Source of the DNA: an uncultured Chloroflexia bacterium
GTDB taxonomy: Bacteria > Chloroflexota > Limnocylindria > QHBO01
Length of the DNA stretch: 64,000 bases
NCBI GenBank assembly: GCA_963814375.1
Contig: CAWFCQ010000003.1
Span: 103,393-167,392 of the forward strand
Direction: 5' to 3'
The position numbers were made by a program, and so were the translations under genes. The notes under the pieces are model-generated. The model was not told the origin of the DNA and did not search any database. It saw only the letters and a program-made list of their open reading frames with translations. Shown in pieces: positions 15,229-30,731 of this stretch (position 1 is the stretch's first letter; each line of letters starts with the position of its first letter).

Positions 15229-15378
15229 TGTGGCGGGATGAGCGTGGATCGGCGCCAGGGTCCCCCTGCTAGACTGTGATCGAGGCGCCCGCCTCGTGCA
15301 GCGTCTCGCCAACGATTGACAACATCGCGGACCGCGAGGTCCGCTCAGCAATCACCGCGCGTTGCGACCGGAGTGGAG

Positions 15379-15738
15379 ATGGATCACACCGGACTGCTCT
15401 ACGTCATCGGTTTCGGGTTCGCCGCGACGACGTTCGTCTTCGGGACGATCCTGTTCAGCTGGCTGATCACCCATCGGCGCCGCAGCCCTCAGAAGGGCCT
15501 CCCGTACGAGTCGGGCGTCGACACCATCGGTGACACCTGGAGCCGGTTCGGACTGGCCTTCTATCTGTACGCCCTGCTCTTCGTGGCCTTCGACGTCGAG
15601 ATCATCTTCGTCTACCTGTGGGCCATCACGGTGCGGGCCATCGAGTTCCAGGGGATCGTCCTGATCGGCATCTTCCTTGCGATCTTGATGTTCGGCGAGC
15701 TGTACGCGTGGAAGAAGGGGGACCTGCGATGGCAATAG
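15379..15738 (+). CDS. nuoA: NADH-quinone oxidoreductase subunit A
   Basis: About 120 aa with three TM helices ([14 protein letters not shown] ... [16 protein letters not shown]) and the NuoA/ND3 pattern. First gene of the nuo cluster. Confidence 0.85.
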
Positions 15739-16409
15739 ACCGAACGCCTCCGAGCGGCCACACCGAACCGCCCACGTCCGGAACCGAGCTCGTCGCCAAC
15801 GACGGCGGGGGGCAGATCATCATCCCCGAGGGCGCGGGCGACGCCGATCTGCTGCGCCCGTTCGGGATGGAGGAGCATCCGCAGGGCGGGTTCCACGGCC
15901 TGCTCGAGGTGATTCCGACCAAAGCCGACCTCATCCTCGACCTGATCCGGGCGAACTCGCTATGGCCGCTCCTCTCGGGCCTGTCGTGCTGCGCGATCGA
16001 GATGATGAGCACGGCCACGAGCGTCAACGACATCGACCGATTCGGCTCGTTTCCGTTCCGTGCCAGCCCGCGACAGGCCGATGTTCTGATCGTGGCGGGG
16101 ACACTCACGACCAAGATGGCCGGGCCGCTCGTGCGCCTCTGGGAGCAGATGCCCGAGCCGAAATGGGTCGTGGCGATGGGGACCTGCACGACATCCGGCG
16201 GCCGCTTCAAGCGCTCCTACTCGGTCGTCCAGGGAGTCGACCGGGTCATGCCCGTCGATGTCTACGTGCCGGGCTGCCCGCCGCGCCCGGAGGGCCTCAT
16301 CTACGGGATGATGAAGCTCCACGAGCTCGTGAAGCAGCGGCGCGGCGAATGGAGCACGTTCGTCGACCGCGGACCGCAGCGGACGCGCTGGGAAGGAGAC
16401 GTTCGCTGA
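15728..16409 (+). CDS. nuoB: NADH-quinone oxidoreductase subunit B
   Basis: N2-cluster cysteines (SCCAIEMM ... GTCTTSGG ... VPGCPPRPE). The ATG overlaps the nuoA stop. Confidence 0.9.
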
Positions 16410-17047
16410 GCACGCCCGCGACCGCAGGCTCGCTCGTCCGAACCCTCACCGAGCGCCTGGGCCCCGACGTCGGCGACCTCTGGACCGATGAGGACACCGT
16501 CGAGTTCTCGATCGACGGTGCGCGCAACCTCGAGGTCCTGGCGCAGCTGCGCGACGATCCCGACCTCGGCTTCTTCATGCTGGCCGACGAGGCTGCCGTG
16601 GACTACGGCGTCGGCGCCCACTTCGAGGTGGTGTATCACCTGTTCAGCTGGAAGCACCCCGCCTGGCTTCGCGTGCGCGCCAAGGTCGACCGCGCCGACC
16701 CGCGCATCCGCTCCGTTACCCACCTGTGGGAGGGCGCGATGTTTCACGAGCGCGAGGCCTACGACATGATGGGCATCGTGTTCGAAGGCAACCGCGACCT
16801 GCGCCGGATCTACATGTCGCCCGACTACCGCAGCTTCCCGCAGCGTCGCGACTTCATCCTGCCCGACGACGCCGCCGACTCGCCCGCCGCCGGCGTCAAT
16901 CCGCTGGAGCGACCGGAGACGTGGGACCTTGCCCGCTTCCGTGACGCGCCGGCGGTGACGTATCCACCCGCGTCCGAGCGTGAGGACGCGCCGGCCGAGC
17001 GGGTCGAGTCTGGCGAGACGCTGGCCGATCGGAGCCGGCCGCGATGA
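16349..17047 (+). CDS. nuoC: NADH-quinone oxidoreductase subunit C
   Basis: NuoC/30-kDa subunit blocks (FEVVYHLFS ... [20 protein letters not shown]). The only in-frame ATG lies inside nuoB at 16349, so the start is uncertain. Confidence 0.75.
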
Positions 17048-18327
17048 CGACGACTGATCCGGAGGTCCGCATCCCGGACCCGATCGAGCTCGACCGGGCC
17101 GAGGAGGCCCGCCTGCGTGCCGCCTCCGGTTTGACGCCGCCCGTCGAGCGGCGGCCCGAGTACGCCGGCTTCGAGTCGGTCGGGATCCCGGACCGGCCGC
17201 CGCAGACGGACCGCGAGCGAGACGTCTACAGCCTCGAGGAGGGCGAGATGCTCCTCAACATGGGGCCACAGCATCCGTCCACCCACGGTGTCATGCGCCT
17301 GGTCGTGAAGGTGCGCGGCGAGGTCATCATCGACATCGACCCGGTGCTCGGCTACCTCCATCGCGGGATCGAGAAGCTGTGCGAGAACGCGACCTACACG
17401 ACCGTGCTCACCTACGTCGACCCGATGGACTACCTCGGCACGATGCACAACGAACACGCCCCGGCCATCGCCTTCGAGAAGCTGTACGGCATCCGGCCGC
17501 CGAAGCGGGCCGAGTACATCCGCGCGCTGGTGGTGGAGCTGAACCGCATCTTCAGCCACGGCCTGATGATGGGCTTCCTGGCGCTCGACATGGGCGGGCT
17601 GACCCCGATCCTCTACAGCTTCATCAACCGCGACGAGATCGTCGACATGCTGTCGGCCATCAGCGGACAGCGGATGCTCTTCAACTTCTTCCGCGTCGGC
17701 GGCGTGAACTGGGACACCAACGACGAGTTCCTCTCGCGGCTGGGGACGTGGCGCGGCACCGTCATGAAGAACATCGAGATGAACGAGCGGATGATCACGG
17801 AGAACGAGATCTTCACCGCCCGGACGCGCGGGATGGGCGTCCTGACCGGCGACGAGGCCATCTCGCTCGGTGTCACCGGCCCGAACCTGCGAGCGTCCGG
17901 CGTGCCGTTCGACGTGCGCAAGGCCCACCCGTACTCGATCTACCACGAGCTCGAGTTCGACGTCATCACCCACCAGACCGGCGACTCGTACGCCCGCTAC
18001 CTCCAGCGCATCGCCGAGGTCAAGCAGAGCATCCACCTCATCGACCAGATCGTGGACCGCATGCCGCACGGCGCGGTGCAGGCCCAGGTGCCGGGCATCA
18101 TTCGCCCCAAGCCGGGCCGCGCCTACGGCGCCGTCGAGTCGCCGCGCGGGCTCTACAGCGTCTACGCCATCAGCGATGGCGGGCCCAACCCGTATCGGTT
18201 CCGAATGCGCGACCCGTCGTTCATCAGCCTCCAGGCGCTGCCCAAGGTCATGCCAGGCAAGCTCATCGCCGACACGATGGCGGTGATGGCCAGCTTCGAC
18301 CCGGTCATGGGCGGCGTGGACAAGTAG
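17044..18327 (+). CDS. nuoD: NADH-quinone oxidoreductase subunit D
   Basis: 427 aa. NuoD/49-kDa signature (MLLNMGPQHPSTHGVMRL, IEKLCE, RMRDPSFISLQALP). Confidence 0.9.
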   Translation: MTTTDPEVRIPDPIELDRAEEARLRAASGLTPPVERRPEYAGFESVGIPDRPPQTDRERDVYSLEEGEMLLNMGPQHPSTHGVMRLVVKVRGEVIIDIDPVLGYLHRGIEKLCENATYTTVLTYVDPMDYLGTMHNEHAPAIAFEKLYGIRPPKRAEYIRALVVELNRIFSHGLMMGFLALDMGGLTPILYSFINRDEIVDMLSAISGQRMLFNFFRVGGVNWDTNDEFLSRLGTWRGTVMKNIEMNERMITENEIFTARTRGMGVLTGDEAISLGVTGPNLRASGVPFDVRKAHPYSIYHELEFDVITHQTGDSYARYLQRIAEVKQSIHLIDQIVDRMPHGAVQAQVPGIIRPKPGRAYGAVESPRGLYSVYAISDGGPNPYRFRMRDPSFISLQALPKVMPGKLIADTMAVMASFDPVMGGVDK

Positions 18328-18354
18328 CCGATGGCCCCATAGATGGCTGTATAG

Positions 18355-19365
18355 ATGGACTGGGAGCTCGTCCTCGGCCTCGGGCGCTTCGTGCTTGCCA
18401 CGACGCTGATCCTGCTGCTCACCGTGCCGACCGCGTTCGTGATCATCCAGATGGAGATGAAGATCATCGCCCAGCTGGCGCTGCGCTTCGGGCCGAACCG
18501 GATCGGTCCGCGCGGCATTTTCCAGAGCACCATCCACGGCTTCAAGGTGCTCGCCAAGGAGGACACCGTCCCCGACCAGGCCGACCGGGTCGCCTTCACG
18601 ATGGCCCCCTGGATGGTGTACATGGCGGCGGCGATGAGCATGCTCGTCATGCCCTTCGCGCCCGGGGCGATCGCGGCCGACATGAACATCGGCATCGTCT
18701 ACTTCTTCGCCGTCCTCGGTCTCTCGGTGGTCGGCCTGCTCGTGGCCGGGTGGGCCAGCTACAACAAGTACTCGCTGCTCGGCGGGCTGCGCTCCGCGGC
18801 GCAGATGGTGAGCTACGAGATCCCGCTGACCCTGTCCATCGTCGGGGCGGTCGTCCTGGCCGGGACCCTCAGCTTCAGCGAGCTCATCGCCTGGCAGCTG
18901 GAGCACGGCTGGCTGCTCTGGTGGCAGCCGGTCGGCCTCGCCATCTTCTACGTCGCCAGCCTGGCCGAGATCAACCGCACTCCGTTCGACATGGTCGAGG
19001 CCGACAGCGAGCTGGTGGCGGGCCCGTTCACCGAGTACTCCGGGATGCGCTTCGGCTTCTTCTTCTTCGCTGAGTACGTCGCGCTGTTCATCATGAGCGG
19101 CATCCTCATCAGCCTCTTCTTCGGCGGCTGGCTGGCGCCGTGGCCATTTCCGGCCCAGCTGGGCGGGTTCGCCGGGACGCTGTACGGCATCTTTTGGTTC
19201 TTCCTCAAGACCTACATCTTCGTGGCGATCGCGGTCTGGCTGCGCGGCACCCTGCCCCGCGTCCGGGTCGACCAGCTGATGGGCATGGCCTGGAAGGTCC
19301 TGCTGCCGCTGGCGCTCATCAACCTGTTCGTCACGGCCATCGCGGTCGTCGTCTTCGAGCTGTAG
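18355..19365 (+). CDS. nuoH: NADH-quinone oxidoreductase subunit H
   Basis: 336-aa polytopic membrane protein with NuoH/ND1 motifs (RFGPNRIGP, GWASYNKYSLLGGLR, EYSGMRFGFFF). Confidence 0.9.
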   Translation: MDWELVLGLGRFVLATTLILLLTVPTAFVIIQMEMKIIAQLALRFGPNRIGPRGIFQSTIHGFKVLAKEDTVPDQADRVAFTMAPWMVYMAAAMSMLVMPFAPGAIAADMNIGIVYFFAVLGLSVVGLLVAGWASYNKYSLLGGLRSAAQMVSYEIPLTLSIVGAVVLAGTLSFSELIAWQLEHGWLLWWQPVGLAIFYVASLAEINRTPFDMVEADSELVAGPFTEYSGMRFGFFFFAEYVALFIMSGILISLFFGGWLAPWPFPAQLGGFAGTLYGIFWFFLKTYIFVAIAVWLRGTLPRVRVDQLMGMAWKVLLPLALINLFVTAIAVVVFEL

Positions 19366-19377
19366 GAGGACGGACCG

Positions 19378-20217
19378 ATGGCGTTCCCCGGTGCCGGCAT
19401 CGCCAAGGGCATGGCCACGACATTCCGCAACTTCTTCGCGCCCAAGGTGACGCGCCAGTACCCCGAGGAGCGGCCCCAGATCCCCGATCGCTGGCGCGGT
19501 CGGCTCGACCTGATCTACGACCCCTTCGGCGAGCACAAGTGCGAGGTCTGCTTCCAGTGCGCGCAGGTCTGCCCGGTCGAGGCCATCGACATGAGCGGAT
19601 TCGACTCGACCGGGAACCGGATCCGATACGGCCTGCCCGAGATCTACGACGAGCGCAAGGACGCCAACGCCTACCGCCGAGCGGGTCTGCCGGCTCGGCC
19701 GATGCGCAACGCCGCGCGCTGGGATGAGGCCGTCGACACGCCGTGGGTCGACGAGACGATCGACGCCTTCGGCGGCCGATCCGAGGCTCTGGTCGCGATC
19801 TTCCGGGCCGTCCAGGATCGCTACGGCTACCTGCCCGAGCATGCGCTGCGTCGGATCAGCGATCGGCTGACGATCCACTGGGCACAGGTCTTCGGCGCCG
19901 CCGGGCTGGGCGGCTTCCGCCTGCTCCCGGCCGGCGGCCACGTCATCACCGTGTGTGACTGTGCCGCCTGCCGCTTCGCGGGCGGCAGCGCGGTCCTGGC
20001 GGCGGTCGAGAGCGAGCTCGGCATCCGGGCGGGCGAGGAGACCCCGGACGGGACCTTCAGCCTGGAGCGCGGCACCGATGTCGGCGCGGGCTCGCTGAGC
20101 CCGGCGATCCGCATCGACACCCTCGTATTCGGGCCGGTCGACGCCGCCAAGGCTCGGCACATCGTCGGAGAGCGCCGCGCCACCGCAGCGCGCCCTGCGA
20201 GCGGGGCCGTCAGCTGA
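19378..20217 (+). CDS. nuoI: fused NuoI-like (single 4Fe-4S) / NuoE-like (thioredoxin-fold) subunit
   Basis: The N-terminus is NuoI-like (VTRQYPEERP ... CEVCFQCAQVCPVEAIDM) but carries only one CxxCxxCxxxCP motif. The C-terminal ~150 aa resemble NuoE (ALVAIFRAVQDRYGYLPEHAL ... GGHVITVCDCAACRFAGGSAVL ... TPDGTFSLERGTDVG), and the second NuoE Cys pair is absent. Confidence 0.75.
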   Translation: MAFPGAGIAKGMATTFRNFFAPKVTRQYPEERPQIPDRWRGRLDLIYDPFGEHKCEVCFQCAQVCPVEAIDMSGFDSTGNRIRYGLPEIYDERKDANAYRRAGLPARPMRNAARWDEAVDTPWVDETIDAFGGRSEALVAIFRAVQDRYGYLPEHALRRISDRLTIHWAQVFGAAGLGGFRLLPAGGHVITVCDCAACRFAGGSAVLAAVESELGIRAGEETPDGTFSLERGTDVGAGSLSPAIRIDTLVFGPVDAAKARHIVGERRATAARPASGAVS

Positions 20218-21569
20218 TGGCCAGCACGATCTCCCCCCAGATCAGCATTCTGCCCGGCGGCGAGCACCGCCTGCTGACCGACATCGGTCGGGTCGACCCT
20301 ACGAGCCTCGCCAGCTATCGCGAGCGCGGCGGGTACGGCGGCCTCGAGCGTGCGGTCACACGCCTCGCTCCAGAGGAGGTCATCGGTGAAATCGAGGCAG
20401 CCGGGCTACGCGGCCGCGGAGGCTCCGGCTACTCGACCGGCGCGAAGTGGCGCGTCGCGCGGGAGGCGCCCGGCGACCGCACGATCGTCGTCGCCAACCT
20501 CATGGGCGCGGATCCGAGCGCCCTCGGCGATCGGGCCCTGGCCGAGGGCAATCCGCACCTGGTCGTCGAGGGCGCGCTGATCGCCGCCTATGCCGTCGGA
20601 GCAACCGAGGCGATCATCGCCGTCCGCCGCGACTGGACCGATGCGATCGCGCGGCTCCGGGCCGCCGCGGCCGAGGCGACCGAGGCGCACCTGGCCGGCT
20701 ACCTCGTGCTTGGCACCGACACGAGCATCCAGCTCAGCGTGTGGGAAGGGTCCGGGGCGTACGTCGCGGGAGAGGAGACAGCGCTGCTGAACGCCCTGGC
20801 CGGCGACCGCGGCATGCCGGCCATTCGTCCGCCGTATCCGGCCACGCGCGGCCTGGGAGACGCACCGACCGTCGTCCAGAACGGCGAGACCCTGGCGCAT
20901 GTCGCGTGGATCCTGTCGCACTCGGCGGAGGCGTTCGCATCGGTCGGCAGCGCGGCCAGCCGGGGCACGAAGCTGGTCACGGTCATGGGGCGGGTCGGCG
21001 AGCCCGGCCTGGTCGAGGTCCCGCTGGGCACCTCGCTGCTCGACATCGTAACCCTCGCCGGCGGCGGCACCGGCGCGAGCAAGGCGGCCTTCGTGGGCGG
21101 GCCGGGCGGTGGCGCGATCGAGTCCGGCGCGTTCAGCGGCACGCCATACGACTACGAGGCGCTCGAGGCCGCCGGCGCGATCATCGGCTCGGGCGCCGTC
21201 CTCGTGGTGGATGCGGCAACCTGCATGGTCGACAGCGCTCGATTCTTCGTCGACTTCAGCGCCCGAGAGGCGTGCGGCAAGGCCGTCCCGTGCCGCATCG
21301 GTACCAAGCGCCTGGTCGAGGGGCTCGACCGCATCCTGGCCGGGACGCCCCGACCGAACGACTTCAATCTTCTCCGCGAGCTCTCGCGCAAGATGAGCGA
21401 CACGGCGCTGTGCAAGCTCGAGCGCCTGGCGCCGGGACCGATCCTCACGACGCTCGATCGGTTCGGCGACGAGTACCGGGCGCATGCCGAGCGCGGCGAG
21501 TGCCTGGCCGGCGCCTGCGCCACCGGCGGGCTGCCGCCCCTCATCTCCCCGTTGGCCGGGCTAGAGTAG
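20217..21569 (+). CDS. nuoF: NADH-quinone oxidoreductase subunit F (divergent)
   Basis: NuoF/51-kDa collinearity: FMN-site region GRGGSGYSTGAKW, NADH-site GEETALLNALAG, SLBB domain. The N3 cluster region reads EACGKAVPCRIG rather than the canonical CGKCxPC. Confidence 0.8.
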   Translation: MASTISPQISILPGGEHRLLTDIGRVDPTSLASYRERGGYGGLERAVTRLAPEEVIGEIEAAGLRGRGGSGYSTGAKWRVAREAPGDRTIVVANLMGADPSALGDRALAEGNPHLVVEGALIAAYAVGATEAIIAVRRDWTDAIARLRAAAAEATEAHLAGYLVLGTDTSIQLSVWEGSGAYVAGEETALLNALAGDRGMPAIRPPYPATRGLGDAPTVVQNGETLAHVAWILSHSAEAFASVGSAASRGTKLVTVMGRVGEPGLVEVPLGTSLLDIVTLAGGGTGASKAAFVGGPGGGAIESGAFSGTPYDYEALEAAGAIIGSGAVLVVDAATCMVDSARFFVDFSAREACGKAVPCRIGTKRLVEGLDRILAGTPRPNDFNLLRELSRKMSDTALCKLERLAPGPILTTLDRFGDEYRAHAERGECLAGACATGGLPPLISPLAGLE

Positions 21570-21575
21570 GCCGCG

Positions 21576-23963
21576 ATGAGCTTCGGCACGACGAACGGCC
21601 ACCCCACCAACGGCAATGGCGCCGGTGACGGCAAGGTCACCGACTACACGCCTATCTGGCCGATGGTGCCCGGGACCCGGAAGATCGCCGTCACCATCAA
21701 CGGCGCCCAGGTCGAGGCCGAGGAGGGCCAGACCATCCTCCAGGCCTGCCGGGTGCTCGGCATCGAGGTCCCGACGCTGTGCTACGAGCCGAAGCTGGCG
21801 CCCTACGGGGCATGCCGCATCTGCGCGGTTGAGGTCGAGGGCCAGGACGACACGCCGATCTCGTGCGGTACCGCGATCACCGAGGGGATGGTCATCACCA
21901 CCCACTCCGACCGGGTCGTCGAGAACCGTCGGATGGTGCTCGAGCTCATCTTCAGTGACCACGACGCGTACTGCCTGCCGCCCTGCCAGTTCAAGTGCCC
22001 GACCCGGGTCGACATTCCGGGCTACCTGAAGCAGAACACCCTGGGCAACTGGGAGGAGGCGACGCGCATCCTGAAGCGCTCCCTCCCGTTCCCGGCCATC
22101 CTCGGCCGCGTCTGCCCGGCGCCGTGCGAGACGCACTGCCGGCGCGAGGAAGTCGACACCGCCATCGCCATCCGCGACTCGCATCGGTACTGCGCCGACC
22201 GTGTGCTCGAAGTCGACGCTCCCGCGCCGATCCCGTGGCCGAAGGAGCCGGACACCGGGCGTCGAGTCGCGGTCATCGGCGCCGGCCCGGCCGGCATGAG
22301 CGTCGCCTACTATCTCCAGCTGCGCGGGCACCACTGCGACGTCTTCGAGGCCGATCCTGAGCAGGGCGGCATGCTCCGCTACGGGATCCCGCAGTACCGC
22401 CTGCCGAAGGGCTGGATGGACCGCGAGCTCAACCACGTGTGGGAGCTGGGCGCGACCTTCCGCCCGAACATGCGGCTCGGGCGCGACTTCCATCTCGGCG
22501 ACATCATCGACGAGTACGACGCGATCTACGTCGGCATCGGCTGCTACAAGCCGAACGAGCTCGGGATCCCGGGCGAGGAAGCCGACGGCATGGTCAACGC
22601 GTTGGAGAACCTCTACAACTCGACGCGCGGAATTCCCGTGCCGCGGCTGAAGGGCGCGCGGGTGGTCGTCATCGGCGGGGGCTTCACGGCCATCGACTGC
22701 ACGCGGACCTCGGTGCGTCAGGGCGCCGCGGAGGTGACGCTCGTCTACCGCCGCGACCTGAAGGACATGCCCGCCGCGGACGAGGCGCACGAGGCGATCG
22801 AGGAGGGAGCGCGCCTCATCTTCCAGGCGGCGCCTACACGCATCGTCACCGACAACAAGAACAAGGTCACCGGCGTCGAGTTCCAGCGCATGAAGCTGGG
22901 CGAGCCGGACGCCCAGGGCCGCCGCCGACCGGAGCCGATGCCGGGCACCGAGTTCATCGTCGAGTGCGACACCGTCCTCGGCGCCATCGGCCAGGGTCCG
23001 GAGCTGTCCTGGATCGAGTCGGAGCCCGACGAGCTCAAGGCCGGCCTCGAGGTCGACCGCCGCGGCAACCTCGTCAGCGAGGAGCACATCTTCCGCACCA
23101 ACGTGCCGAAGATCTTCGCCTCCGGCGACGTGCGCACCGGCGCCGCCACCGTGGTGGAAGCGATCGGCGAGGGTCGCCGCGCCTCGTACGCGATGGACTA
23201 CTGGCTGCGCGGCCACGACCTCGACGACCCGCAGGTGCGGCGCATCGTCACCGAGCCGCAGCCCAACTTCCTCACGATCGTGCCCTTCACCGACGACGTG
23301 AAGGAGCCGCGGGCGATCATGGGCAAGCAGGAGGCGGACGAGCGCAAGGGCAACTTCAACGAGTACGAGTTCGGCTACACCGGCGACCAGGCCATGGCCG
23401 AGGCGTCGCGCTGCCTCCAGTGCACCTGTGAGGCGATCGGCCACTGCGACCTGCGCGAGGCGGCGATCGAGTACGAGACGACGCTCAACATGGCGATCGA
23501 CGAGCGCTCGATCCAGGACAACCCGTACGTCGGCGTCAACCACGGCTACGGCCGCGACGAGACCCACTCCTTCATCCTGCGCGACTACTCGCGCTGCATC
23601 GACTGCGGTCGATGCGCCCAGGTGTGCAAGGAGATCGTCGGCGCCGGCTGCTATGACTTCATCGGCAAGGGCTTCGACTCGCTGGTCACCACCGCCGACT
23701 ACGTCAGCCTCAACGAGACGCCGTGCGTTTCCTGCGGCCGATGCGCGGAGACCTGCCCCGTCGGCGCCCTCATGCCGCGCCCGCGCATCCTCGAGACCTA
23801 CCAGCTCGACGTGTCGCGCTGCATCTTCTGCGGCATCTGCGCCGATGCCTGCCCGTACGACGCCCTGCGCTGCGGCCCCGAGTTCGAGTTCAGCGAGTAT
23901 CAGCGCGACCTGCCCATGCTCGACATCCTCGAGATGTCCGACCGGGAGCGACCTACCCGCTAG
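21576..23963 (+). CDS. chimeric NuoG-like iron-sulfur flavoprotein (2Fe-2S + GltD-like FAD/NAD(P) domain + 2x4Fe-4S ferredoxin)
   Basis: The N-terminal ~150 aa match the NuoG N1b/N5 region (CYEPKLAPYGACRICAVEVEG ... HDAYCLPPCQFKCP). The middle is GltD-like, i.e. glutamate-synthase-small-subunit-like (two dinucleotide folds, VAVIGAGPAGMS and VVVIGGGFTAIDCTR). The C-terminus carries two CxxCxxCxxxCP motifs (CVSCGRCAETCP, CIFCGICADACP). No molybdopterin-like domain is present. Confidence 0.7.
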   Translation: MSFGTTNGHPTNGNGAGDGKVTDYTPIWPMVPGTRKIAVTINGAQVEAEEGQTILQACRVLGIEVPTLCYEPKLAPYGACRICAVEVEGQDDTPISCGTAITEGMVITTHSDRVVENRRMVLELIFSDHDAYCLPPCQFKCPTRVDIPGYLKQNTLGNWEEATRILKRSLPFPAILGRVCPAPCETHCRREEVDTAIAIRDSHRYCADRVLEVDAPAPIPWPKEPDTGRRVAVIGAGPAGMSVAYYLQLRGHHCDVFEADPEQGGMLRYGIPQYRLPKGWMDRELNHVWELGATFRPNMRLGRDFHLGDIIDEYDAIYVGIGCYKPNELGIPGEEADGMVNALENLYNSTRGIPVPRLKGARVVVIGGGFTAIDCTRTSVRQGAAEVTLVYRRDLKDMPAADEAHEAIEEGARLIFQAAPTRIVTDNKNKVTGVEFQRMKLGEPDAQGRRRPEPMPGTEFIVECDTVLGAIGQGPELSWIESEPDELKAGLEVDRRGNLVSEEHIFRTNVPKIFASGDVRTGAATVVEAIGEGRRASYAMDYWLRGHDLDDPQVRRIVTEPQPNFLTIVPFTDDVKEPRAIMGKQEADERKGNFNEYEFGYTGDQAMAEASRCLQCTCEAIGHCDLREAAIEYETTLNMAIDERSIQDNPYVGVNHGYGRDETHSFILRDYSRCIDCGRCAQVCKEIVGAGCYDFIGKGFDSLVTTADYVSLNETPCVSCGRCAETCPVGALMPRPRILETYQLDVSRCIFCGICADACPYDALRCGPEFEFSEYQRDLPMLDILEMSDRERPTR

Positions 23964-23989
23964 ACCGGTGCGGCGGGCGGCGTTGATGG

Positions 23990-24040
23990 GCTCCCGGAAG
24001 TGTCGGCGGCTCGCGCTTCGCTAGCTCGCCGGCGACCCTT
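23990..24040. terminator. long imperfect hairpin between convergent nuoG-like and lipoprotein genes (possible bidirectional terminator, no U-tract)
   Basis: Inverted repeat ccggaag-gtcgGcgg ... ccgGcgac-cttccgg, read directly from the sequence. GC-rich genomes often lack the U-tract. Confidence 0.25.
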
Positions 24041-24163
24041 CCGGCCGCTGCCCGAACCGCTTGGAGATCGTGTTTTATTCGATGGCGGCCGTGAGCCACC
24101 AGGTCCGCCACCGCCGTGCGCCGACCCGCGGTCCTGCGAGTAGGGGCGCGCGGGCGACTGTTC

Positions 24164-24535
24164 TCAGAACTTGTTCAGGTTGACCTGCCACTCGTCGCAG
24201 TCGCTGACGACGGTGATGGTGTACTCGCCCTCGATCAGGTCGTTCACGAACGAGGTCGTGACGCGCTGCTGCTGCTCGTAGGTGAAGCCACCGTCGACCG
24301 AGGTGATCGAGACGACGACGTCCTCGCAGGTTGGTGCGGTGTACGAGAGGCGGTAGCGACCTGCCTGAAGCGGGAACGTCGTCCCCTCCTCGTCCTCCGA
24401 CGTCGCTCTCGCGGCCTCGGGAAATTCCGAGGCGCCGTCATCGCCGCCTCCGCCACCACCACCTCCGCCGCACGCGGCGAGAAGCACGGTCAACGAAAGG
24501 AGCGCGAGCAGCGTGGTCCGTCTCAGCATCTCCAC
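24164..24535 (-). CDS. small secreted lipoprotein (signal peptide + lipobox LAAC, poly-Gly linker)
   Basis: 123-aa ORF beginning MEMLRRTTLLALLSLTVLLAACGGGGGGGGG. It is antisense to the nuo cluster and sits between the nuoG-like gene and nuoJ. Confidence 0.55.
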   Translation of the reverse strand: MEMLRRTTLLALLSLTVLLAACGGGGGGGGGDDGASEFPEAARATSEDEEGTTFPLQAGRYRLSYTAPTCEDVVVSITSVDGGFTYEQQQRVTTSFVNDLIEGEYTITVVSDCDEWQVNLNKF

Positions 24536-24702: not shown

Positions 24703-25227
24703 GTGGGAGCCACGGCCCTGGACATCTCCAGCGTTCTTTTTTACCTGCTCGCGATCGGCGTCGTGGGCGCCGGGCTCGCGGTGGTCACGCTGCGCAACAT
24801 CATCCACTCGGCCGTGGCGATGATGGTCTGCTTCGGTTCACTGGCTGGCATGTACGCCCTCCTGGGTGCTCCGATCGTGGCTGCCGCGCAGGTGCTCATC
24901 TACCTCGGCGCGATCAGCGTCCTGATCCTCTTCGCCATCATGCTCACCCAGGCGGGCGACGCGAACCTGCCCGCGCCGTTCCACCGACAGCTGCCGATCG
25001 CGGTCGTGGTCGCCCTTGCGGTCACCGGCCTGGTCGGATGGGCGGTGGTCCAGACCGACTGGCAGATGGCCGCCGAGGTCACCGGCGCCGCGGTCGAGGC
25101 CATTGCGACGGCTGTCTTCACGACCTATGCGCTGCCGTTCGAGATCATCAGCCTGCTTCTCCTCGTCGCGATCATCGGTGCCATCTTCCTGGCGCGCCGC
25201 CCGGAAGAGGACGAGCGCGCGAACTGA
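24703..25227 (+). CDS. nuoJ: NADH-quinone oxidoreductase subunit J
   Basis: 174-aa membrane protein with the NuoJ/ND6 pattern (LIYLGAISVLILFAIML). Confidence 0.85.
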   Translation: MGATALDISSVLFYLLAIGVVGAGLAVVTLRNIIHSAVAMMVCFGSLAGMYALLGAPIVAAAQVLIYLGAISVLILFAIMLTQAGDANLPAPFHRQLPIAVVVALAVTGLVGWAVVQTDWQMAAEVTGAAVEAIATAVFTTYALPFEIISLLLLVAIIGAIFLARRPEEDERAN

Positions 25228-25230
25228 CCG

Positions 25231-25536
25231 ATGGGGATCCAGGGCTATCTCATCGTCTCGGCGCTGCTGTTCGGCATCGGCGCGTTCGGGTTCATGGTGC
25301 GCCGCAACGCGATCCTCATGCTCATCAGCATCGAGCTCATGTTCAACGCGGTGAACCTGAGCCTCGTGGCCTTCAACGCCTATCTCCCGCCCGATGCGAA
25401 TGCCGGCGCCGTCTTCGCGCTCATGATCATGGCCGTCGCCGCCGCCGAGGTGACGGTCGGGCTGGCCCTCGTGATCGCGATCATCCGTACGCGCCAGACG
25501 GCCGAGGTCGACCAGTACGCCGATCTGAAGGAGTAG
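25231..25536 (+). CDS. nuoK: NADH-quinone oxidoreductase subunit K
   Basis: 101 aa with three TM helices. NuoK/ND4L motifs (MLISIELMFNAVNL, AAAEVTVGLALV). Confidence 0.9.
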   Translation: MGIQGYLIVSALLFGIGAFGFMVRRNAILMLISIELMFNAVNLSLVAFNAYLPPDANAGAVFALMIMAVAAAEVTVGLALVIAIIRTRQTAEVDQYADLKE

Positions 25537-25540
25537 CCCG

Positions 25541-27739
25541 ATGCCCATCGAGCTGCTGATCGCCCTCATTCCGGCGCTGCCCCTCGCCGGGTTCCTGTTC
25601 GCCGTGCTCGTCGGGCCGCGCATCGACCGCGTCCCGTCCCACGGTCACGACGAGCATCACGACGACGGCCACGCGAGCCACGATGATCACGGGCCGATCG
25701 ACGACTCGAGCTTCCGCGGCATCCCGACCGAGGAGGAGCAGGCGGCGACCAGCCCGCACGCCGGGCACGCCGACGATCTCGCCAATGCCGAGGGCGCCGC
25801 CGGCGTCATTCCCGCCGACATGAACGACGGCCTCGGGCAGGCCGGGCACGTGACCCCGGGCGGCCCGAAGCCTCGCTACCTGTCGTGGATCGTGCCGACC
25901 GGCCTGGTCGGGATCGGCTGGGTCATCAGCATGATCGTCGTCGCCGACGTGATCTTCGGCGGCAACGAGTACGAGGTGACGCTCTACGAGTGGATCGCAT
26001 CGGGCGACTTCCACGTCGAGATCAGCTTCCTCGTTGACAGCCTCACGGCGATGCTCCTGCTGGTCGTGAGCACGGTCGGGTTCCTCGTGCACGTCTACAG
26101 CATCGGCTACATGGACGGCGACCGCGGGTTCTGGCGCTTCTTCGCCTACCTCAACCTGTTCATGTTCTCGATGCTGCTCCTCATCCTGGGCGACAACTTC
26201 CTGATGCTGTACGTCGGCTGGGAGGCGGTCGGCCTGTGCAGCTACGCGCTCATCGGCTTCTGGTACAAGAAGCCGTCGGCGGCGGGAGCCGCCAAGAAGG
26301 CGTTCGTCGTCAACCGCATCGGCGACCTGGGCTTCGGCCTGGGCGTGATGATGATCTGGGTCAACCTCGGCACGCTGAGCTTCCACGAGGTTTTCGAGAC
26401 CATCGGCACGCTCGACGAGGGCACGGTGACGGTCATCGCCCTCCTGCTCTTCGCCGGCGCCGTGGGCAAGTCAGCCCAGTTTCCGCTCCACGTCTGGCTG
26501 CCGGATGCCATGGAAGGGCCGACCCCCGTCAGCGCCCTCATCCACGCCGCGACGATGGTCAACGCCGGCGTGTACATGGTCGCTCGCGCCAACCCGATCT
26601 TCGCCGAGGCGCCGACCGCGATGCTGACCGTCGCCACCATCGGCGCATTCACCGCCATCTTCGCCGCGGCCATCGCACTGACCCAGAACGACATCAAGAA
26701 GGTCCTCGCCTACAGCACCGTCAGCCAGCTGGCCTACATGTTCCTGGCGCTCGGTGTCGGAGCCTGGGTCTCGGCCATCTTCCACCTCGTCAGCCACGGC
26801 TTCTTCAAGGGCCTGCTGTTCATGGGCTCCGGCTCCGTCATCCACGGGGCCGGCGGCGAGCAGGACATGCGGTACATGGGCAACCTGCGGGCGAGGATGC
26901 GCTGGACCTACGTGACGATGGTCATCGGCTCGCTGGCCCTGGCCGGCATCCCGCTCTTCGCCGGCTTCTTCAGCAAGGACGAGATCCTGGCCGAGACCTT
27001 CAACCGCGGCTACTACGTCTTCTACCTGATCGGCGTGATCGTGGCCTTCATGACCGCCTTCTACACGTTCCGGATGATCTTCATGACGTTCTGGGGTGAG
27101 TGGCGCGGGCCGGCCGCGATCTGGGAGCACGTCCACGAGAGCGCGGTGACCATGGTCGCGCCGCTCGTGCTCCTGTCGGTGCCCACGATCTTCGCCGGGC
27201 TTCTGCTGGGCATCCCGCCGGAGGGCGGCGTCATCCACACCTGGCTGGAGGAGGTCTTCCACGCTTCGGAGGAGGCCGGAGCGGGCATCCAGCCGGGCTC
27301 GATCGCAGCGACGAGCCACGAGGGGTTCCAGCTCCTCGGCTTCGGCGGCCTGCTGCTCGGCAGCGGCGCGCTGGTGGCGGCGCTCGGCGTCTGGCTGGCC
27401 TATCGCTGGTACGTCCGTGATCCCGAGGCGCCGGCCCGCTTCGTCGAGCGCTTCCCAGCCGGGCTCGGCCCGGGGATGTATCGGGCCAGCGTCAACAAGT
27501 ACTACGTCGACGACATTTACGGGCTCGTGTTTGCCCGTGGCGGCGTCCTGCTGGCCGAGGCGCTGTGGTGGTTCGACGCGAGGATCATCGACGGCATCGT
27601 GAACGGCGCCGGCTGGCTGGCCTCGACCATCGGTGGTGGCCTGCGCAAGGTCCAGACCGGACGGGTCGAGAACTACGGGCTCGGCATCGCGGCCGGGCTG
27701 GCCGTGGTGCTCCTCGCCTACGCGACGGTGGTGCGCTGA
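25541..27739 (+). CDS. nuoL: NADH-quinone oxidoreductase subunit L with a His/Asp-rich N-proximal insertion
   Basis: 732 aa with NuoL/ND5 antiporter-like motifs (YVGWEAVGLCSYALIGFW, QFPLHVWLPDAMEGPTPVSALIHAATMV). A ~100-aa low-complexity insertion (HGHDEHHDDGHASHDDHGP ...) follows TM1. Confidence 0.9.
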   Translation: MPIELLIALIPALPLAGFLFAVLVGPRIDRVPSHGHDEHHDDGHASHDDHGPIDDSSFRGIPTEEEQAATSPHAGHADDLANAEGAAGVIPADMNDGLGQAGHVTPGGPKPRYLSWIVPTGLVGIGWVISMIVVADVIFGGNEYEVTLYEWIASGDFHVEISFLVDSLTAMLLLVVSTVGFLVHVYSIGYMDGDRGFWRFFAYLNLFMFSMLLLILGDNFLMLYVGWEAVGLCSYALIGFWYKKPSAAGAAKKAFVVNRIGDLGFGLGVMMIWVNLGTLSFHEVFETIGTLDEGTVTVIALLLFAGAVGKSAQFPLHVWLPDAMEGPTPVSALIHAATMVNAGVYMVARANPIFAEAPTAMLTVATIGAFTAIFAAAIALTQNDIKKVLAYSTVSQLAYMFLALGVGAWVSAIFHLVSHGFFKGLLFMGSGSVIHGAGGEQDMRYMGNLRARMRWTYVTMVIGSLALAGIPLFAGFFSKDEILAETFNRGYYVFYLIGVIVAFMTAFYTFRMIFMTFWGEWRGPAAIWEHVHESAVTMVAPLVLLSVPTIFAGLLLGIPPEGGVIHTWLEEVFHASEEAGAGIQPGSIAATSHEGFQLLGFGGLLLGSGALVAALGVWLAYRWYVRDPEAPARFVERFPAGLGPGMYRASVNKYYVDDIYGLVFARGGVLLAEALWWFDARIIDGIVNGAGWLASTIGGGLRKVQTGRVENYGLGIAAGLAVVLLAYATVVR

Positions 27740-29259
27740 TGGACGGCGTCCCCCTGCTCACCCTGATCGTCTTCATGCCCGCACTCGGCGCGCTCCTCCT
27801 GCTGTTCGTGCCGGCCGACAACCATCGCGCCATCCGATGGATCGCCCTCGCCACGGCGCTGCTCACCTTTGCGCTCAGCCTGGTCCTGCTCGGCTACAAC
27901 CCCGACGGCAGCGAGTTCCAGTTCCGCGAGGACCTCGAGTGGATCGACTTCTTCGGCATGCGCTACACGCTCGGCGTGGACGGCATCAGCGTCGTGCTGG
28001 TGATCCTGACCACGCTGCTGAGCGTCGTGGCCATCCGCTACAGCTGGGAGCCGATCCAGACGAAGGTGCGGGCCTACTACGCCACGATGCTGGTGCTGAT
28101 GGTCGGCATGCTCGGCGTGTTCGTCGCCCTCGACCTCTTCCTCTTCTACGTCTTCTGGGAAGTCAGCCTCTTCCCGATGTACTTCGTCATCGGCGTCTGG
28201 GGCGGCCCGCGTCGCATCTACGCCACGGTGAAGTTCGTCATCTACACCCTGGTCGGCTCGCTGCTCATGCTCGTCGCCATCCTGGCCGTGGCGATCGCGT
28301 ACGCATCGGCCGGCAACCCGTTCACCTTCAGCTACGAGGCGCTCCGCGGCTTCGCCTACGCCGATTCGCTCCAGGCCGTCGCATTCATCGCCTTCTTCCT
28401 CGCCTTCGCCATCAAGGTGCCGATGTGGCCGCTCCACACCTGGCTGCCCGATGCGCACGTCGAGGCCCCCACCGCCGGCTCGATCATCCTGGCTGGCGTG
28501 CTGCTCAAGCTCGGCGGCTACGGCTTCCTGCGCTACAACCTGCCGCTCCTGCCCGATGCCGCCGTGACCTTCGCGCCGATCATCATCGGGTTGAGCATCA
28601 TCGCCATCATCTACGGCGGCCTGGTGGCGATGGTGCAGCCCGACATGAAGAAGCTGGTGGCGTACTCGAGCGTGAGCCACATGGGCTTCGTCATGCTCGG
28701 CGCGTTCGTCTTCAACACCCAGGGCCTCCAGGGCGCCGTCTACCAGATGATCAGCCACGGCATCACGACCGGTGCGCTGTTCCTGCTGGTGGGCATCATC
28801 TACGAGCAGACCCACGATCGCGAGATCTCGCACATGGGCGGCCTCAACGCCCGGCTGCCCCACTACGCGGCCATGTTCGGCCTCTTCACCTTCGCCAGCA
28901 TCGGGCTGCCTGGGCTGTCGGGGTTCATCGGCGAGTTCCTCGTCATCTTGGGCGCCTTCGAGTCGAACGGCTTCGTGGCGGCGGCGGCGATGGTGGTGGT
29001 CATCATCAGCGCGGTCTACATGCTGTGGATGTTCCAGCGCGTCTTCTTCACTGTGCCATCCGATTGGATGCGCCGATGGTGGCCGTCGCTGCGCGACATG
29101 AGCAGCGGCGAGTGGCAGTCGCTCGCGCCGCTGGTGGTGCTGGTCGTGGCGCTGGGGGTCTATCCCGGACCGATCCTCGAGATCATCAGCGCGCCGGTCG
29201 AGCGAATCATCGAGGCGGTCAACGGCGCCGGGCTCACCGGCCTCGGGCCGCTGTGGTGA
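27739..29259 (+). CDS. nuoM: NADH-quinone oxidoreductase subunit M
   Basis: NuoM/ND4 motifs (FFLAFAIKVPMWPLHTWLPDAHVEAPTAGS). The start MDGVPLL overlaps the nuoL stop (TGATG). Confidence 0.9.
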   Translation: MDGVPLLTLIVFMPALGALLLLFVPADNHRAIRWIALATALLTFALSLVLLGYNPDGSEFQFREDLEWIDFFGMRYTLGVDGISVVLVILTTLLSVVAIRYSWEPIQTKVRAYYATMLVLMVGMLGVFVALDLFLFYVFWEVSLFPMYFVIGVWGGPRRIYATVKFVIYTLVGSLLMLVAILAVAIAYASAGNPFTFSYEALRGFAYADSLQAVAFIAFFLAFAIKVPMWPLHTWLPDAHVEAPTAGSIILAGVLLKLGGYGFLRYNLPLLPDAAVTFAPIIIGLSIIAIIYGGLVAMVQPDMKKLVAYSSVSHMGFVMLGAFVFNTQGLQGAVYQMISHGITTGALFLLVGIIYEQTHDREISHMGGLNARLPHYAAMFGLFTFASIGLPGLSGFIGEFLVILGAFESNGFVAAAAMVVVIISAVYMLWMFQRVFFTVPSDWMRRWWPSLRDMSSGEWQSLAPLVVLVVALGVYPGPILEIISAPVERIIEAVNGAGLTGLGPLW

Positions 29260-29270
29260 GGGGCTGACGG

Positions 29271-30731
29271 ATGGACATGGTCGACGACCTCGTCACTCTC
29301 CTGCCGGAGCTGATCCTGACGGTGCTCGTCCTCGTCATCATCACCACGGACCTCTTCATCTCGCGCGCGAACAAGTGGCTGCTGACCCCGCTCACCGTGG
29401 CCGGCCTCATCCTGGCCGGGGCGGCGTGCTTCGTGGTGTGGGACGTCAACGAGACGGTGTACGGCGGCTTCTACGTCGTCGACGACCTGTCGGTGTTCCT
29501 GAAGGGCGCCACCATCCTGATCGGCATCCTCTCCGCCCTCTTCGCGCCGGCCTACCTCCTCGTCCGACGCATCCCGCTCGGCGAGTTCAACACGATCCTG
29601 GTGACCGCGCTCATCGGCATGTGCGTGCTGGCCTCGAGCAGCGACTTCATCACCCTCTTCCTGGGCCTCGAGCTGATGACGATGCCGTCCTACCTGCTGA
29701 CCGGGCTCCACAAGACCGACCGATACAGCAACGAGGGCGGGCTCAAGTACTTCCTGCTCGGCAGCTTCGCCAGCGCCATCCTCCTGTTCGGCGTAGCCTG
29801 GATGTACGGCCTCACCGGCACCACGAACATCGGCGCCATCGCGGCGTCGCTCGACGGCCAGATGAGCGCCGGCATCCTGGTGGCGGTCGGGTTCCTGACC
29901 GTGGGCGCGACCTTCAAGATCGCGGCGGTGCCGTTCCACTACTGGACGCCGGACGCCTACCAGGGCGCCCCGACACCCATCACCGGATTCCTCTCGGTCG
30001 GCCCCAAGCTCGGCGCCTTCGCGCTCGTGATCCGGATCTTCGTCGAGGCCCTGGCCCCGTTGCGGACCGATTGGCTGGCGGTGTTCCTGGTCCTGACGGT
30101 GCTGACCATGACGATCGGCAACGTGGTGGCGCTGACGCAGACCAACGTCAAGCGGATGCTGGCCTACTCGAGCATCGCCCACACCGGCTACATCATGGCC
30201 GGCCTCGCCGCGTACGCGAACGCGACCGATCCGGAGGCCGCGGCCCAGGGCATCCAGGCGGTCCTCTTCTACCTCCTCGCCTACGCGGTCATGAACATCG
30301 CGGCCTTCGCGATGGTGGCGATGCTCCAGCGCGACACGGGCCGCTTCGGTGGGCTCAACTCCTTCGCCGGCCTCGCCTCGCGCGCCCCGTGGCACGCCGC
30401 CGCGATGACCGTGCTGCTGCTGAGCCTGACCGGAATTCCCCCTACCGTCGGCTTCTTCGCGAAGCTCCTCATCCTGCTCGCCACGGTCGAGTCCGGGCTC
30501 ATCTGGCTGGCGGTCGTCGTCGCGCTCAACGCGGCGCTGGCGGCGTTCTACTACCTGCGCGTCGTGGTCTACATGTACATGCGCGATCCCGAGCCGGAGC
30601 CCGCTCCGATCGACACCAACCCGTTCGGCTCGGTGGCCCTGGCCGTCTCGGTGGCCGGCGTGATCGCGCTCGGGATCTTCCCGGGAGCCATCCTGCGCCT
30701 GGTCGAGGTCTCTGCGGCCAGTATCTTCTAG
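29271..30731 (+). CDS. nuoN: NADH-quinone oxidoreductase subunit N
   Basis: 486 aa. NuoN/ND2 motifs (KIAAVPFHYWTPDAYQGAPTPITGF). Confidence 0.9.
   Translation: MDMVDDLVTLLPELILTVLVLVIITTDLFISRANKWLLTPLTVAGLILAGAACFVVWDVNETVYGGFYVVDDLSVFLKGATILIGILSALFAPAYLLVRRIPLGEFNTILVTALIGMCVLASSSDFITLFLGLELMTMPSYLLTGLHKTDRYSNEGGLKYFLLGSFASAILLFGVAWMYGLTGTTNIGAIAASLDGQMSAGILVAVGFLTVGATFKIAAVPFHYWTPDAYQGAPTPITGFLSVGPKLGAFALVIRIFVEALAPLRTDWLAVFLVLTVLTMTIGNVVALTQTNVKRMLAYSSIAHTGYIMAGLAAYANATDPEAAAQGIQAVLFYLLAYAVMNIAAFAMVAMLQRDTGRFGGLNSFAGLASRAPWHAAAMTVLLLSLTGIPPTVGFFAKLLILLATVESGLIWLAVVVALNAALAAFYYLRVVVYMYMRDPEPEPAPIDTNPFGSVALAVSVAGVIALGIFPGAILRLVEVSAASIF

Follow-up and report, generated by a model that had tools for sequence, protein, structure and literature searches.

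An NfnA/StnC-type protein carrying half of NuoI in the complex I gene cluster of a soil Limnocylindria bacterium

The 795-residue protein and its domains

The DNA analysed here, a 64,000-nucleotide stretch of contig CAWFCQ010000003.1 (hereafter the window), comes from a soil bacterium of Candidatus Limnocylindria (Chloroflexota) and carries a nuo cluster for respiratory complex I in which the place of nuoG is taken by an open reading frame (ORF) of another kind. This gene, the target of our analysis (21576-23963, forward strand), runs from ATG to stop exactly as annotated and encodes 795 residues. Pfam assignments gave the cluster order nuoA, nuoB, nuoC, nuoD, nuoH, a gene joining the N-terminal half of NuoI to a NuoE-like domain (NuoI-N::NuoE, 279 residues), a NuoF-like gene, the target, and nuoJ, nuoK, nuoL, nuoM and nuoN (Table 1). 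The set of membrane and quinone-module genes of complex I (nuoA, B, C, D, H, J, K, L, M and N) is complete and NuoB keeps the ligand motifs of cluster N2, PGCPP among them, the quinone module thus looking intact as far as its sequence goes. No separate nuoI gene was found in the window cluster or in the clusters of relatives examined.

The architecture returned by Pfam and NCBIfam agrees with the initial annotation, which had placed in the NuoG slot an iron-sulphur protein with a NuoG-like N-terminus and a GltD-like flavin domain. A Fer2_4 match (residues 35-111, 2.3e-19) is followed by model positions 1-17 only of NADH-G_4Fe-4S_3 at residues 118-134, that is, by the H129-x3-C133 start of an N5-type motif, and by Fer4_20, the two-cluster domain of GltD and dihydropyrimidine dehydrogenase (residues 134-212, 1.6e-19). 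Pyr_redox_2 spans residues 230-533 (3.2e-28) and includes the two predicted Rossmann motifs, GAGPAG (235-240) and GGGFTA (367-372), and towards the C-terminus Fer4_Nqo3 (667-732) precedes a further Fer4 match (743-765). The flavin domain splits the His-type cluster motif, leaving H129-x3-C133 and C137-x3-C141-P ahead of it and the C613-C624 motif behind it; this second part was invariant in 145 of 145 aligned sequences and aligns with 'RCLECGC...C.L' of StnC and NfnA. All ligand residues given in Table 1 for the [2Fe-2S] domain, for the cluster motifs on either side of the flavin domain (H129 to H203 and C613 to C624) and for the F-domain were invariant in 120 relatives. The protein ends 60 residues past this F-domain, and its C-terminus holds three cysteine motifs, two of which make up the HydA/NuoG-type F-domain, the third (C749/752/755/759-P) belonging to the C-terminal half of NuoI. 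Hence, the C-terminal 2x[4Fe-4S] ferredoxin of the initial annotation is no simple ferredoxin but comprises the F-domain together with the C-half of NuoI.

The absence of a molybdopterin-like domain was borne out as well, since Pfam gave no match to Molybdopterin, Molydop_binding or NADH_dhqG_C in the target at E values up to 0.01. The NuoG model TIGR01973 scored 98.5 bits against a cut-off of 470.05 and matched over its positions 1-95 only. A conventional NuoG, as the operon position and the N-terminal [2Fe-2S] domain might suggest, is refuted by the domain scan and by this score, as well as by the insertion of a 470-residue flavin domain, and its probability is close to nil. The protein also stayed below the cut-offs of TIGR01318, the GltD/NfnL small-subunit family (334.9 versus 482.95), and of PRK12814 (549.8 versus 916).

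The closest relatives of known structure are the A-type subunits of electron-bifurcating transhydrogenases. In a PDB sequence search, residues 35-759 of the target gave a single continuous alignment with residues 2-699 of NfnA from Caldicellulosiruptor saccharolyticus NfnABC (9bov_A, 563 bits), followed by StnC of Sporomusa ovata (8oh5_C, 513 bits) and NfnA of Thermococcus sibiricus (9n5u_A, 475 bits), while NfnL/GltD chains scored 240-300 bits and NuoG chains around 70-90; identities were 36-40% to NfnA/StnC and 33-36% to the NfnL/GltD group. The alignment to StnC and NfnA stops at about residue 738-760, and the remaining tail matches NuoI models. An AlphaFold2 model built from 78 diverse homologs had a mean predicted local distance difference test (pLDDT) of 84.3, with residues 30-738 confident (an earlier model from 60 close relatives had reached a pLDDT of 60 with an uninterpretable C-terminus). 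It superposed on 9bov_A, 8oh5_C and 9n5u_A with template-modelling (TM) scores of 0.76-0.80 and root-mean-square deviations of 2.9-3.9 Å over about 710 columns, and on the NfnL (NfnB), GltD and dihydropyrimidine dehydrogenase modules with TM scores of 0.79-0.81. Residues 35-738 of the target are therefore homologous to NfnA/StnC, the NADPH-oxidising subunit of the Bfu-type NfnABC/StnABC transhydrogenases. It follows that the protein is no new chimera of NuoG and GltD, its domain arrangement being that of a structurally solved family, and that among the proteins originally proposed for comparison (NuoG, GltD and NfnB) the NfnL/GltD group comes well behind NfnA/StnC and NuoG well behind both. 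Residues Y391-R392-R393, located after the second Rossmann strand, are invariant in the family and align with the YRR of StnC and of C. saccharolyticus NfnA; as StnC is an NADPH-bound structure, this would point to a preference for NADPH.

Table 1. Features of the nuo cluster in window coordinates (aa, amino acid residues of the encoded protein)
Feature	Position	Strand	Basis
nuoA-nuoH block	15316..19365	+	Pfam
nuoA	15316-15738	+	Pfam
nuoB	ends 16409	+	Pfam
nuoC	probable start 16349, ends 17047	+	Pfam
nuoD	17044-18327	+	Pfam
nuoH	18355-19365	+	Pfam
NuoI N-half, first CxxCxxCxxxCP motif C55-C65 (aa 1-85 of 279-aa protein)	19378..19632	+	TIGR01971 positions 1-70
Linker LPEIYDERKDANAYRRAGLPARPMRN between NuoI N-half and NuoE-like domain (aa 86-116)	19633..19725	+	at least 95% conserved at most positions, 65 loci
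NuoE/BfuC-like thioredoxin-like domain, three cysteines only, C193, C195, C198 (aa 117-279)	19726..20217	+	Pfam 2Fe-2S_thioredx 3e-25
NuoF/BfuB-like flavoprotein core, 450 aa, lacking N-terminal [2Fe-2S] and C-terminal 2x[4Fe-4S] domains of BfuB	20217..21569	+	PDB search
Target gene, NfnA/StnC-type (BfuA-like) subunit lacking FdhF-like domain, fused to NuoI C-half	21576..23963	+	PDB homology, AlphaFold2 model
[2Fe-2S] domain, N1b/A4 type, ligands C69, C80, C83, C97 (aa 35-111)	21678..21908	+	Pfam Fer2_4; four cysteines invariant in 120 relatives
H129-x3-C133 and NfnL/GltD-type two-[4Fe-4S] domain, C137, C141, C180, C184, C188, H203 (aa 118-212)	21927..22211	+	Pfam; ligands invariant
FAD- and NAD(P)H-binding Rossmann domains, including Y391-R392-R393 (aa 228-545)	22257..23210	+	Pfam Pyr_redox_2; pLDDT 90-98
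C613-x2-C616-x-C618-x5-C624-D-L-R, second part of split cluster motifs behind flavin domain (aa 613-624)	23412..23447	+	145-sequence alignment
F-domain, 2x[4Fe-4S], C674/677/680/684 and C717/720/723/727 (aa 667-735)	23574..23780	+	Fer4_Nqo3, TIGR02512 positions 2-77; pLDDT 86-90
NuoI C-half, second CxxCxxCxxxCP motif C749-C759, in place of NfnA/StnC FdhF-like domain (aa 737-795)	23784..23963	+	TIGR01971
nuoJ-nuoN block	24703..30731	+	Pfam
nuoJ	24703-25227	+	Pfam
nuoK	25231-25536	+	Pfam
nuoL	25541-27739	+	Pfam
nuoM	within ORF 27565-29259	+	Pfam
nuoN	29271-30731	+	Pfam

Division of NuoI between two proteins

The NCBIfam NuoI model TIGR01971 is divided between two proteins of the cluster, with positions 1-70 falling on the 279-residue protein (residues 11-81) and positions 71-112 of 121 on the target (residues 737-778). 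When concatenated and searched against the PDB, the two pieces were collinear with E. coli NuoI (23-81 for the N-half, 90-128 for the C-half) and aligned in one stretch to residues 6-126 of T. thermophilus Nqo9, as well as to M. smegmatis NuoI. The N-half retains the region that precedes the first cysteine motif in canonical NuoI, and the isolated 67-residue tail of the target had NuoI models as all seven of its best families (E values from 1e-13 to 9e-9, TIGR01971 at 9.6e-14). The 'fused nuoI/E' gene that had been noted upstream is indeed a fusion of NuoI and NuoE sequences, but it holds the N-half of NuoI only, so that NuoI is split by the E-F-A cassette. Read in this way, the sequences place an nfnC-nfnB-nfnA-like cassette in frame inside nuoI, which is thus in two pieces, and the cluster encodes an Nfn-type module covalently joined to both NuoI halves together with an apparently intact quinone module.

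An assignment of the third cysteine motif to the N7-like CxxCxxxC of an FdhF-like domain, to which HMMER and a MAFFT alignment had led at that position, was rejected, since the isolated tail matches NuoI first. The flanks of the motif (SRCIFCGxCxxACPxxAL..P.FE..Y.R) are likewise NuoI-like.

The NuoI tail also separates the relatives of the target. We aligned 145 sequences (alignment A2), 47 of them nuo-linked and 98 StnC-like, and computed a neighbour-joining tree, in which the 47 nuo-linked proteins were monophyletic (47/47). Scored by counting CxxCxxCxxxCP motifs past residue 600, a second motif of this type was present in all 47 nuo-linked homologs and in none of the 98 StnC-like proteins. 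The two sets differ as well at His203, conserved in 47/47 nuo-linked proteins and replaced by lysine in 97/98 StnC-like ones, and C692 is common to the nuo-linked proteins.

From this division it follows that the ferredoxin fold bearing clusters N6a and N6b would have to be assembled from two polypeptides, by which the NAD(P)H module would be physically tied to the quinone module. In two-cluster ferredoxin folds, each cluster is held by three cysteines of one motif and the fourth cysteine of the other; with one CxxCxxCxxxCP motif in each half, N6a and N6b would each draw ligands from both polypeptides. The tail (residues 739-795) had a pLDDT below 50 in the model of the target alone, as expected of half a domain, though a shallow alignment in this region could contribute too. 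The linker LPEIYDERKDANAYRRAGLPARPMRN that joins the N-half of NuoI to the NuoE-like domain is better conserved among 65 loci than this domain itself, which suggests a specific structural role.

At the break-point, one strand appears to be present in both halves: ...RYGLPEIYDE... in the N-half and ...RILETYQLD... in the C-half of the window (19615-19650 and 23787-23822). The corresponding junctions in Thermoleophilia read ...ESTYDL... and ...IRYDLD..., and E. coli has a single ...WYPEFFRIN.... Judged by eye, this is a short duplication at the insertion site.

The target might instead be a soluble Nfn-like enzyme merely located in the nuo cluster, with a generic ferredoxin extension at its C-terminus and NuoI supplied from elsewhere. 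The parent family is soluble, and our search for nuoI covered the clusters, so that another copy could lie elsewhere in the genome. However, the two pieces specifically match complementary halves of NuoI, with NuoI models on top for the isolated tail, the N-half with the region before its first cysteine motif would otherwise be left partnerless, and the split-NuoI layout is kept, with abutting or overlapping genes, in three subfamilies from two phyla. Furthermore, the FdhF-like domain, which is needed for an active StnABC complex, is absent. We regard such a soluble enzyme as very unlikely. The reading we favour, with a probability of roughly 60%, is that the target serves as 'A' subunit in a respiratory complex I of unusual build, in which an nfnC-nfnB-nfnA-like operon sits in frame within nuoI of an 11-subunit-type nuo cluster.

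Relatives, constraint and partner subunits

Close relatives of the target are encoded on 183 stretches of the genome collection, from many soil and other environmental metagenomes, and we kept 80 Limnocylindria loci that are 84-96% identical in the target. Every one of these long enough showed the same gene order, NuoI-N::NuoE included, and the co-occurrence with this fusion that the initial annotation had asked about extends to all three subfamilies. In a second, sister group within Chloroflexota (about 60% identity, 845-890 residues), the genes follow the same order, are tightly packed and again do not include nuoI. In an exhaustive search of representatives at 50% identity, the further homologs were only StnC/NfnA-like proteins of about 650-1400 residues, with the sole exception of an 816-residue protein (P0154, 41% identity) ending in a NuoI tail. 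Its family is large, its named members are all Thermoleophilia or Actinobacteria metagenome-assembled genomes (MAGs), and no cultured strain was found among the cluster members, which are all MAG-derived records. A search with the NuoI-N::NuoE protein returned close Limnocylindria relatives only and no new lineage.

Near-identical operons (87-93% identity to the target) were seen in L018, L025, L050, L053, L057 and L070, loci labelled Steroidobacteraceae, Angelobacter, Dormiibacterota, Zixiibacteriota and Pleomorphomonadaceae. The most likely reason is that these contigs were assigned to the wrong MAGs.

Comparison of the ratio of nonsynonymous to synonymous substitution rates (dN/dS) across eight nuo genes indicated purifying selection on all of them, with values of 0.157 for the target, 0.20 for NuoI-N::NuoE, 0.215 for nuoD and 0.22 for nuoF. 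The target also had the lowest dN of the eight (0.059), the NADPH/FAD subunit being the most constrained component of the enzyme.

Judged from their sequences, the NuoF and NuoE partners are nearest to subunits of the Nfn-Bfu family rather than to those of canonical complex I. The NuoE-like domain (NCBIfam span, residues 117-266) scored 77-83 bits against HydC, NfnC and StnA in the PDB and about 50 bits against canonical NuoE, while the NuoF-like protein reached 408 bits with 9bov_B and 396 with both 8oh5_B and 9n5u_B, as compared with 260-271 for NuoF of complex I. The order of the E-like, F-like and A-like genes matches stnA-stnB-stnC, the comparison being with the subunit names of the S. 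ovata enzyme. Both partners are nonetheless reduced. The NuoF-like protein corresponds to residues 106-524 of the 584 of BfuB, without the N-terminal thioredoxin-like and the C-terminal 2x[4Fe-4S] (B3/B4) domains. Its B1/N3 motif, C353-G-K-A356-V-P-C359 in place of CGKCxxC, has three cysteines and has lost the second, which is alanine in 68 of 70 relatives, threonine in the sister group and still cysteine in Thermoleophilia. Its FMN (flavin mononucleotide) loop reads NLMGADPSAL instead of NADEGDPGAF. In the NuoE-like domain, C193-x-C195-x2-C198 is retained and the usual second CxxxC pair (around residues 232-241) is replaced by VGAGSLSPA; the sister group has one cysteine more and Thermoleophilia all four.

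These changes raise the question of whether the NuoF/NuoE-like pair is a catalytically dead scaffold in the window lineage and the enzyme a strictly NADPH-dependent complex I, a sub-variant of the reading given above that recalls ordinary NuoG, whose molybdopterin-like domain is kept without its cofactor. Apart from the substituted B1 cysteine, the altered FMN loop, the missing fourth NuoE cysteine and the loss of both terminal cluster domains, the faster divergence of NuoF (67-84% identity across the Limnocylindria loci, where the target has 84-96%) would fit such a role. On the other hand, the GRGG-G, GEET and K-W motifs, three of the B1 cysteines and the ligands of the Bfu zinc site (C336, H423, C429, C434) are still there, and the dN/dS of NuoF is close to that of nuoD. 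A site with three cysteines can still bind a [3Fe-4S] cluster, or a [4Fe-4S] cluster with a non-cysteine ligand, and the B1/N3 site next to the FMN could hold either. We consider a dead pair quite unlikely.

The full Bfu equipment, namely the B3/B4 and N-terminal thioredoxin-like domains of BfuB and intact B1 and C1 sites, is absent from the window and present in Thermoleophilia (Actinomycetota). Two long contigs from the family of P0154 (L084 and L085) carry nuoA, B, C, D, H, NuoI-N::NuoE, BfuB, the target homolog and nuoJ-N. Their NuoI-N::NuoE protein has 253 residues with four cysteines intact, their target homolog has 824-865 residues and the NuoI tail, and their BfuB is full-length (636-642 residues), with an N-terminal thioredoxin-like [2Fe-2S] domain, a C-terminal 2x[4Fe-4S] domain, the canonical GRGGAGFPTGAKW motif, the CNGDEGDPGAFMD loop and the ESCGKCVPCRLGT motif, so that this NuoF-like subunit retains all the domains for electron bifurcation. 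Such an intact core suggests that in Thermoleophilia NADH, ferredoxin, NADPH and quinone may be coupled.

Several observations concern the remainder of the locus. The longest ORFs of nuoB (263 residues) and nuoC (361 residues; 15618-17047 together) overlap by about 450 nucleotides, and later true starts are indicated by their conserved parts and by the genes of 247 and 248 residues in L081, nuoC probably starting at ATG 16349. In the gap between the target and nuoJ (23964-24702), an ORF of 123 residues on the minus strand (24164-24535) encodes a lipoprotein-like product with signal peptide, cysteine and poly-glycine, with counterparts at the same site in L008, L009 and L022 (53-61% identity). 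Among the Limnocylindria loci, the length of this gap lies between about 70 bp and about 7.5 kb, and in neither the sister group nor Thermoleophilia does it exceed about 25 bp; it resembles an insertion hot spot, and the nuo cluster may thereby form two transcription units. A scan of the gap for promoters and terminators gave no signal exceeding chance. Directly after nuoN lies otsA (trehalose-6-phosphate synthase, GT20), with a trehalose phosphatase gene on the opposite strand (30736-33279), otsA being kept behind nuoN in most of the displayed Limnocylindria loci that reach that far and also in L083. Elsewhere, the window holds two genes with adenylate/guanylate-cyclase domains, of which one also encodes an AAA_16 STAND-type ATPase domain, as well as a 1689-residue ORF with PMT-family glycosyltransferase domains (3996-5291, 43238-46621 and 53301-58370).

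Proposed electron routes and comparison with known systems

According to the published structures of NfnABC and StnABC, the A subunit is a NuoG-like iron-sulphur protein with a GltD/NfnL-like domain for flavin adenine dinucleotide (FAD) and NADPH, whose flavin is non-bifurcating. Its electrons run through A7, A6, A3, A2 and A1 into the NuoF/NuoE-like core, where bifurcation takes place at the B1-FMN-C1 site and low-potential electrons leave via B3/B4. NADPH is resolved in StnC, the FdhF-like domain of which is required for an active StnABC complex, and a lysine ligand of A7 (K170 in StnC, K165 in T. sibiricus NfnA) is reported to be conserved in all NfnABC enzymes. As the solved enzymes need both the B1-FMN-C1 site and B3/B4, the loss of the BfuB end domains and of the B1 and NuoE cysteines leaves the window enzyme without its bifurcation parts.

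If the target is taken as the A subunit of a complex I, the enzyme would most likely be an NAD(P)H:quinone oxidoreductase that pumps protons and admits NADPH at its FAD site. The alternative electron entry route suggested initially thus finds its most reasonable reading in an extra NAD(P)H entry point. The NuoE-like protein would begin with the first ~80 residues of NuoI, and the last ~55 residues of NuoI would take the place that a formate-dehydrogenase-like domain has at the C-terminus of NfnA. NADPH would reduce the FAD, from which electrons could pass to A7, with three cysteines and His203 as presumed ligands, then to A6 and to the His129-type cluster (A3, equivalent to N5). In complex I, N5 passes electrons on to N6a of NuoI. 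The His129-type cluster, being N5/A3 by homology, would hence act as a three-way junction of the FAD branch, the F-domain/NuoF branch and the path through N6a and N6b of the split NuoI to N2 in NuoB and to quinone, the reduction of which would be coupled to proton pumping via NuoH and NuoJ-N. If the NuoF site is active, electrons from NADH could reach the same cluster via FMN, B1, A1 and A2. The Limnocylindria enzyme, with its bifurcation-specific Nfn parts removed or eroded, would accordingly operate as a non-bifurcating NAD(P)H:quinone oxidoreductase.

Several points weigh against such an enzyme. It would need the GltD-like domain and NuoI both docked at the His-type cluster, and the case for it is made from sequence, homology and a single-chain model. 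Specificity for NADPH over NADH is argued from one motif and homology, and the changed FMN loop, the lost B1 cysteine and the reduced set of NuoE cysteines might mean that NADH is no substrate. A canonical nuoI, or nuoEFG, may also be present elsewhere in the genome, the search for nuoI having covered clusters only. Finally, electrons could flow either way, towards oxidation of NADPH or towards reduction of NADP+.

This last point leads to an explanation in which the flavin domain is an output, making the complex a membrane-coupled transhydrogenase or NADP+ reductase that generates NADPH, the electrons being supplied by NADH or, at the expense of the proton motive force, by quinol. Complex I is reversible, as are the parent transhydrogenases NfnABC and StnABC, and the FAD and the A7-A6-A3 chain should be able to conduct in both directions; the purifying selection on the NuoF-like subunit (dN/dS 0.22), which resembles that on core subunits, would also be accounted for. 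Sequence, however, fixes no direction, the eroded cluster sites of NuoF and NuoE speak against a strong role of NADH in the window lineage, and an energy-consuming NADPH generator would be costly as the complex I of the cell. Although not negligible, we find this explanation unlikely and retain the quinone-reducing oxidoreductase fed by NADPH.

Taken together, the two phyla allow a broader proposal, which we put forward tentatively and at somewhat less than even odds. Complex I would have come by a module for NAD(P)H oxidation on two independent occasions, the second being the in-frame capture of a soluble Nfn-Bfu operon into nuoI of an 11-subunit enzyme. Thermoleophilia would as a result possess a proton-pumping hub of four redox pools (NADH, NADPH, ferredoxin and quinone) with an intact site for bifurcation or confurcation, and in Limnocylindria the enzyme would have been streamlined to a non-bifurcating and mainly NADPH-fed complex I, in which N6a and N6b are each ligated from two polypeptides.

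The origin of the NADH-oxidising module of complex I is a long-standing question in bioenergetics, and a separate capture event appears to be recorded, with its junctions visible in nuoI, in the gene order A, B, C, D, H, I-N::E, F, A::I-C, J-N. What the layout leads one to expect is a respiratory complex I equipped with an NADPH/FAD entry site of its own; use of NADPH by E. coli complex I has been reported after engineering. In Thermoleophilia, by contrast, the same layout places a full flavin-based bifurcation core on a proton pump, and the balance between NADH, NADPH and the quinone pool in these lineages bears on their energy metabolism. Public annotations name these proteins 'FAD-dependent oxidoreductase', 'formate dehydrogenase major subunit' and 'NuoE', under which annotation pipelines would probably score the genomes as lacking both NuoG and NuoI.

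Compared with NfnA/StnC, the target shares the [2Fe-2S] domain, the interrupted His-type motif, the FAD-NADPH domain with two [4Fe-4S] clusters and the F-domain over residues 35-738, and its B and C partners are homologous too. It differs in lacking the FdhF-like C-terminal domain, which is full in StnC and partial in T. sibiricus NfnA, and carries the NuoI C-half there instead; in having His203 and not lysine at the position of the non-cysteine A7 ligand; and in lying inside a nuo cluster, next to partners devoid of the bifurcation-specific clusters. With NuoG/Nqo3 it has in common the operon slot, the N-terminal [2Fe-2S] domain, the His-x3-Cys start of N5 and the N4-type ferredoxin-like domain (Fer4_Nqo3), but only about 100 residues fit NuoG models, the molybdopterin-like domain is missing, a flavin domain is inserted and the F-domain has two clusters. 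Fer4_20 and two Rossmann domains are shared with NfnL, GltD and the N-terminal module of dihydropyrimidine dehydrogenase, whose known members are stand-alone or otherwise fused; NfnL differs further in that bifurcation takes place at its FAD and a glutamate is among the ligands of its proximal cluster.

No description of the split-NuoI/Nfn-module layout was found in the literature searched, most subscription journals being outside its coverage. The nearest precedent is the 'Nuo-Bfu' complex predicted by Schut et al. 2022 (PMC9304861), in which a BfuABC-type module replaces canonical NuoEFG within a nuo cluster, as it does here, and is expected to feed quinone reduction and proton pumping. That complex is placed in Deferribacteres and Proteobacteria (clade 38) and in Planctomycetes and Nitrospirae (clade 39), and in the parts of the article available an Nfn-type NADPH/FAD BfuA, a split NuoI and Actinobacteria go unmentioned, Chloroflexi being named for other Bfu types only. 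More distant relatives are the 11-subunit complex I enzymes (Moparthi and Hagerhall 2011), the FpoF-type enzymes and the mbx-like clusters with a GltD-like flavoprotein in place of NuoI (Degli Esposti 2015). What links all of them with the present cluster is that modules for electron input have been exchanged on a conserved NuoABCDHIJKLMN core. The present cluster differs in that it retains NuoI, though in two parts, and in that its input module is an entire Nfn-type unit of three subunits, joined covalently to both NuoI halves.

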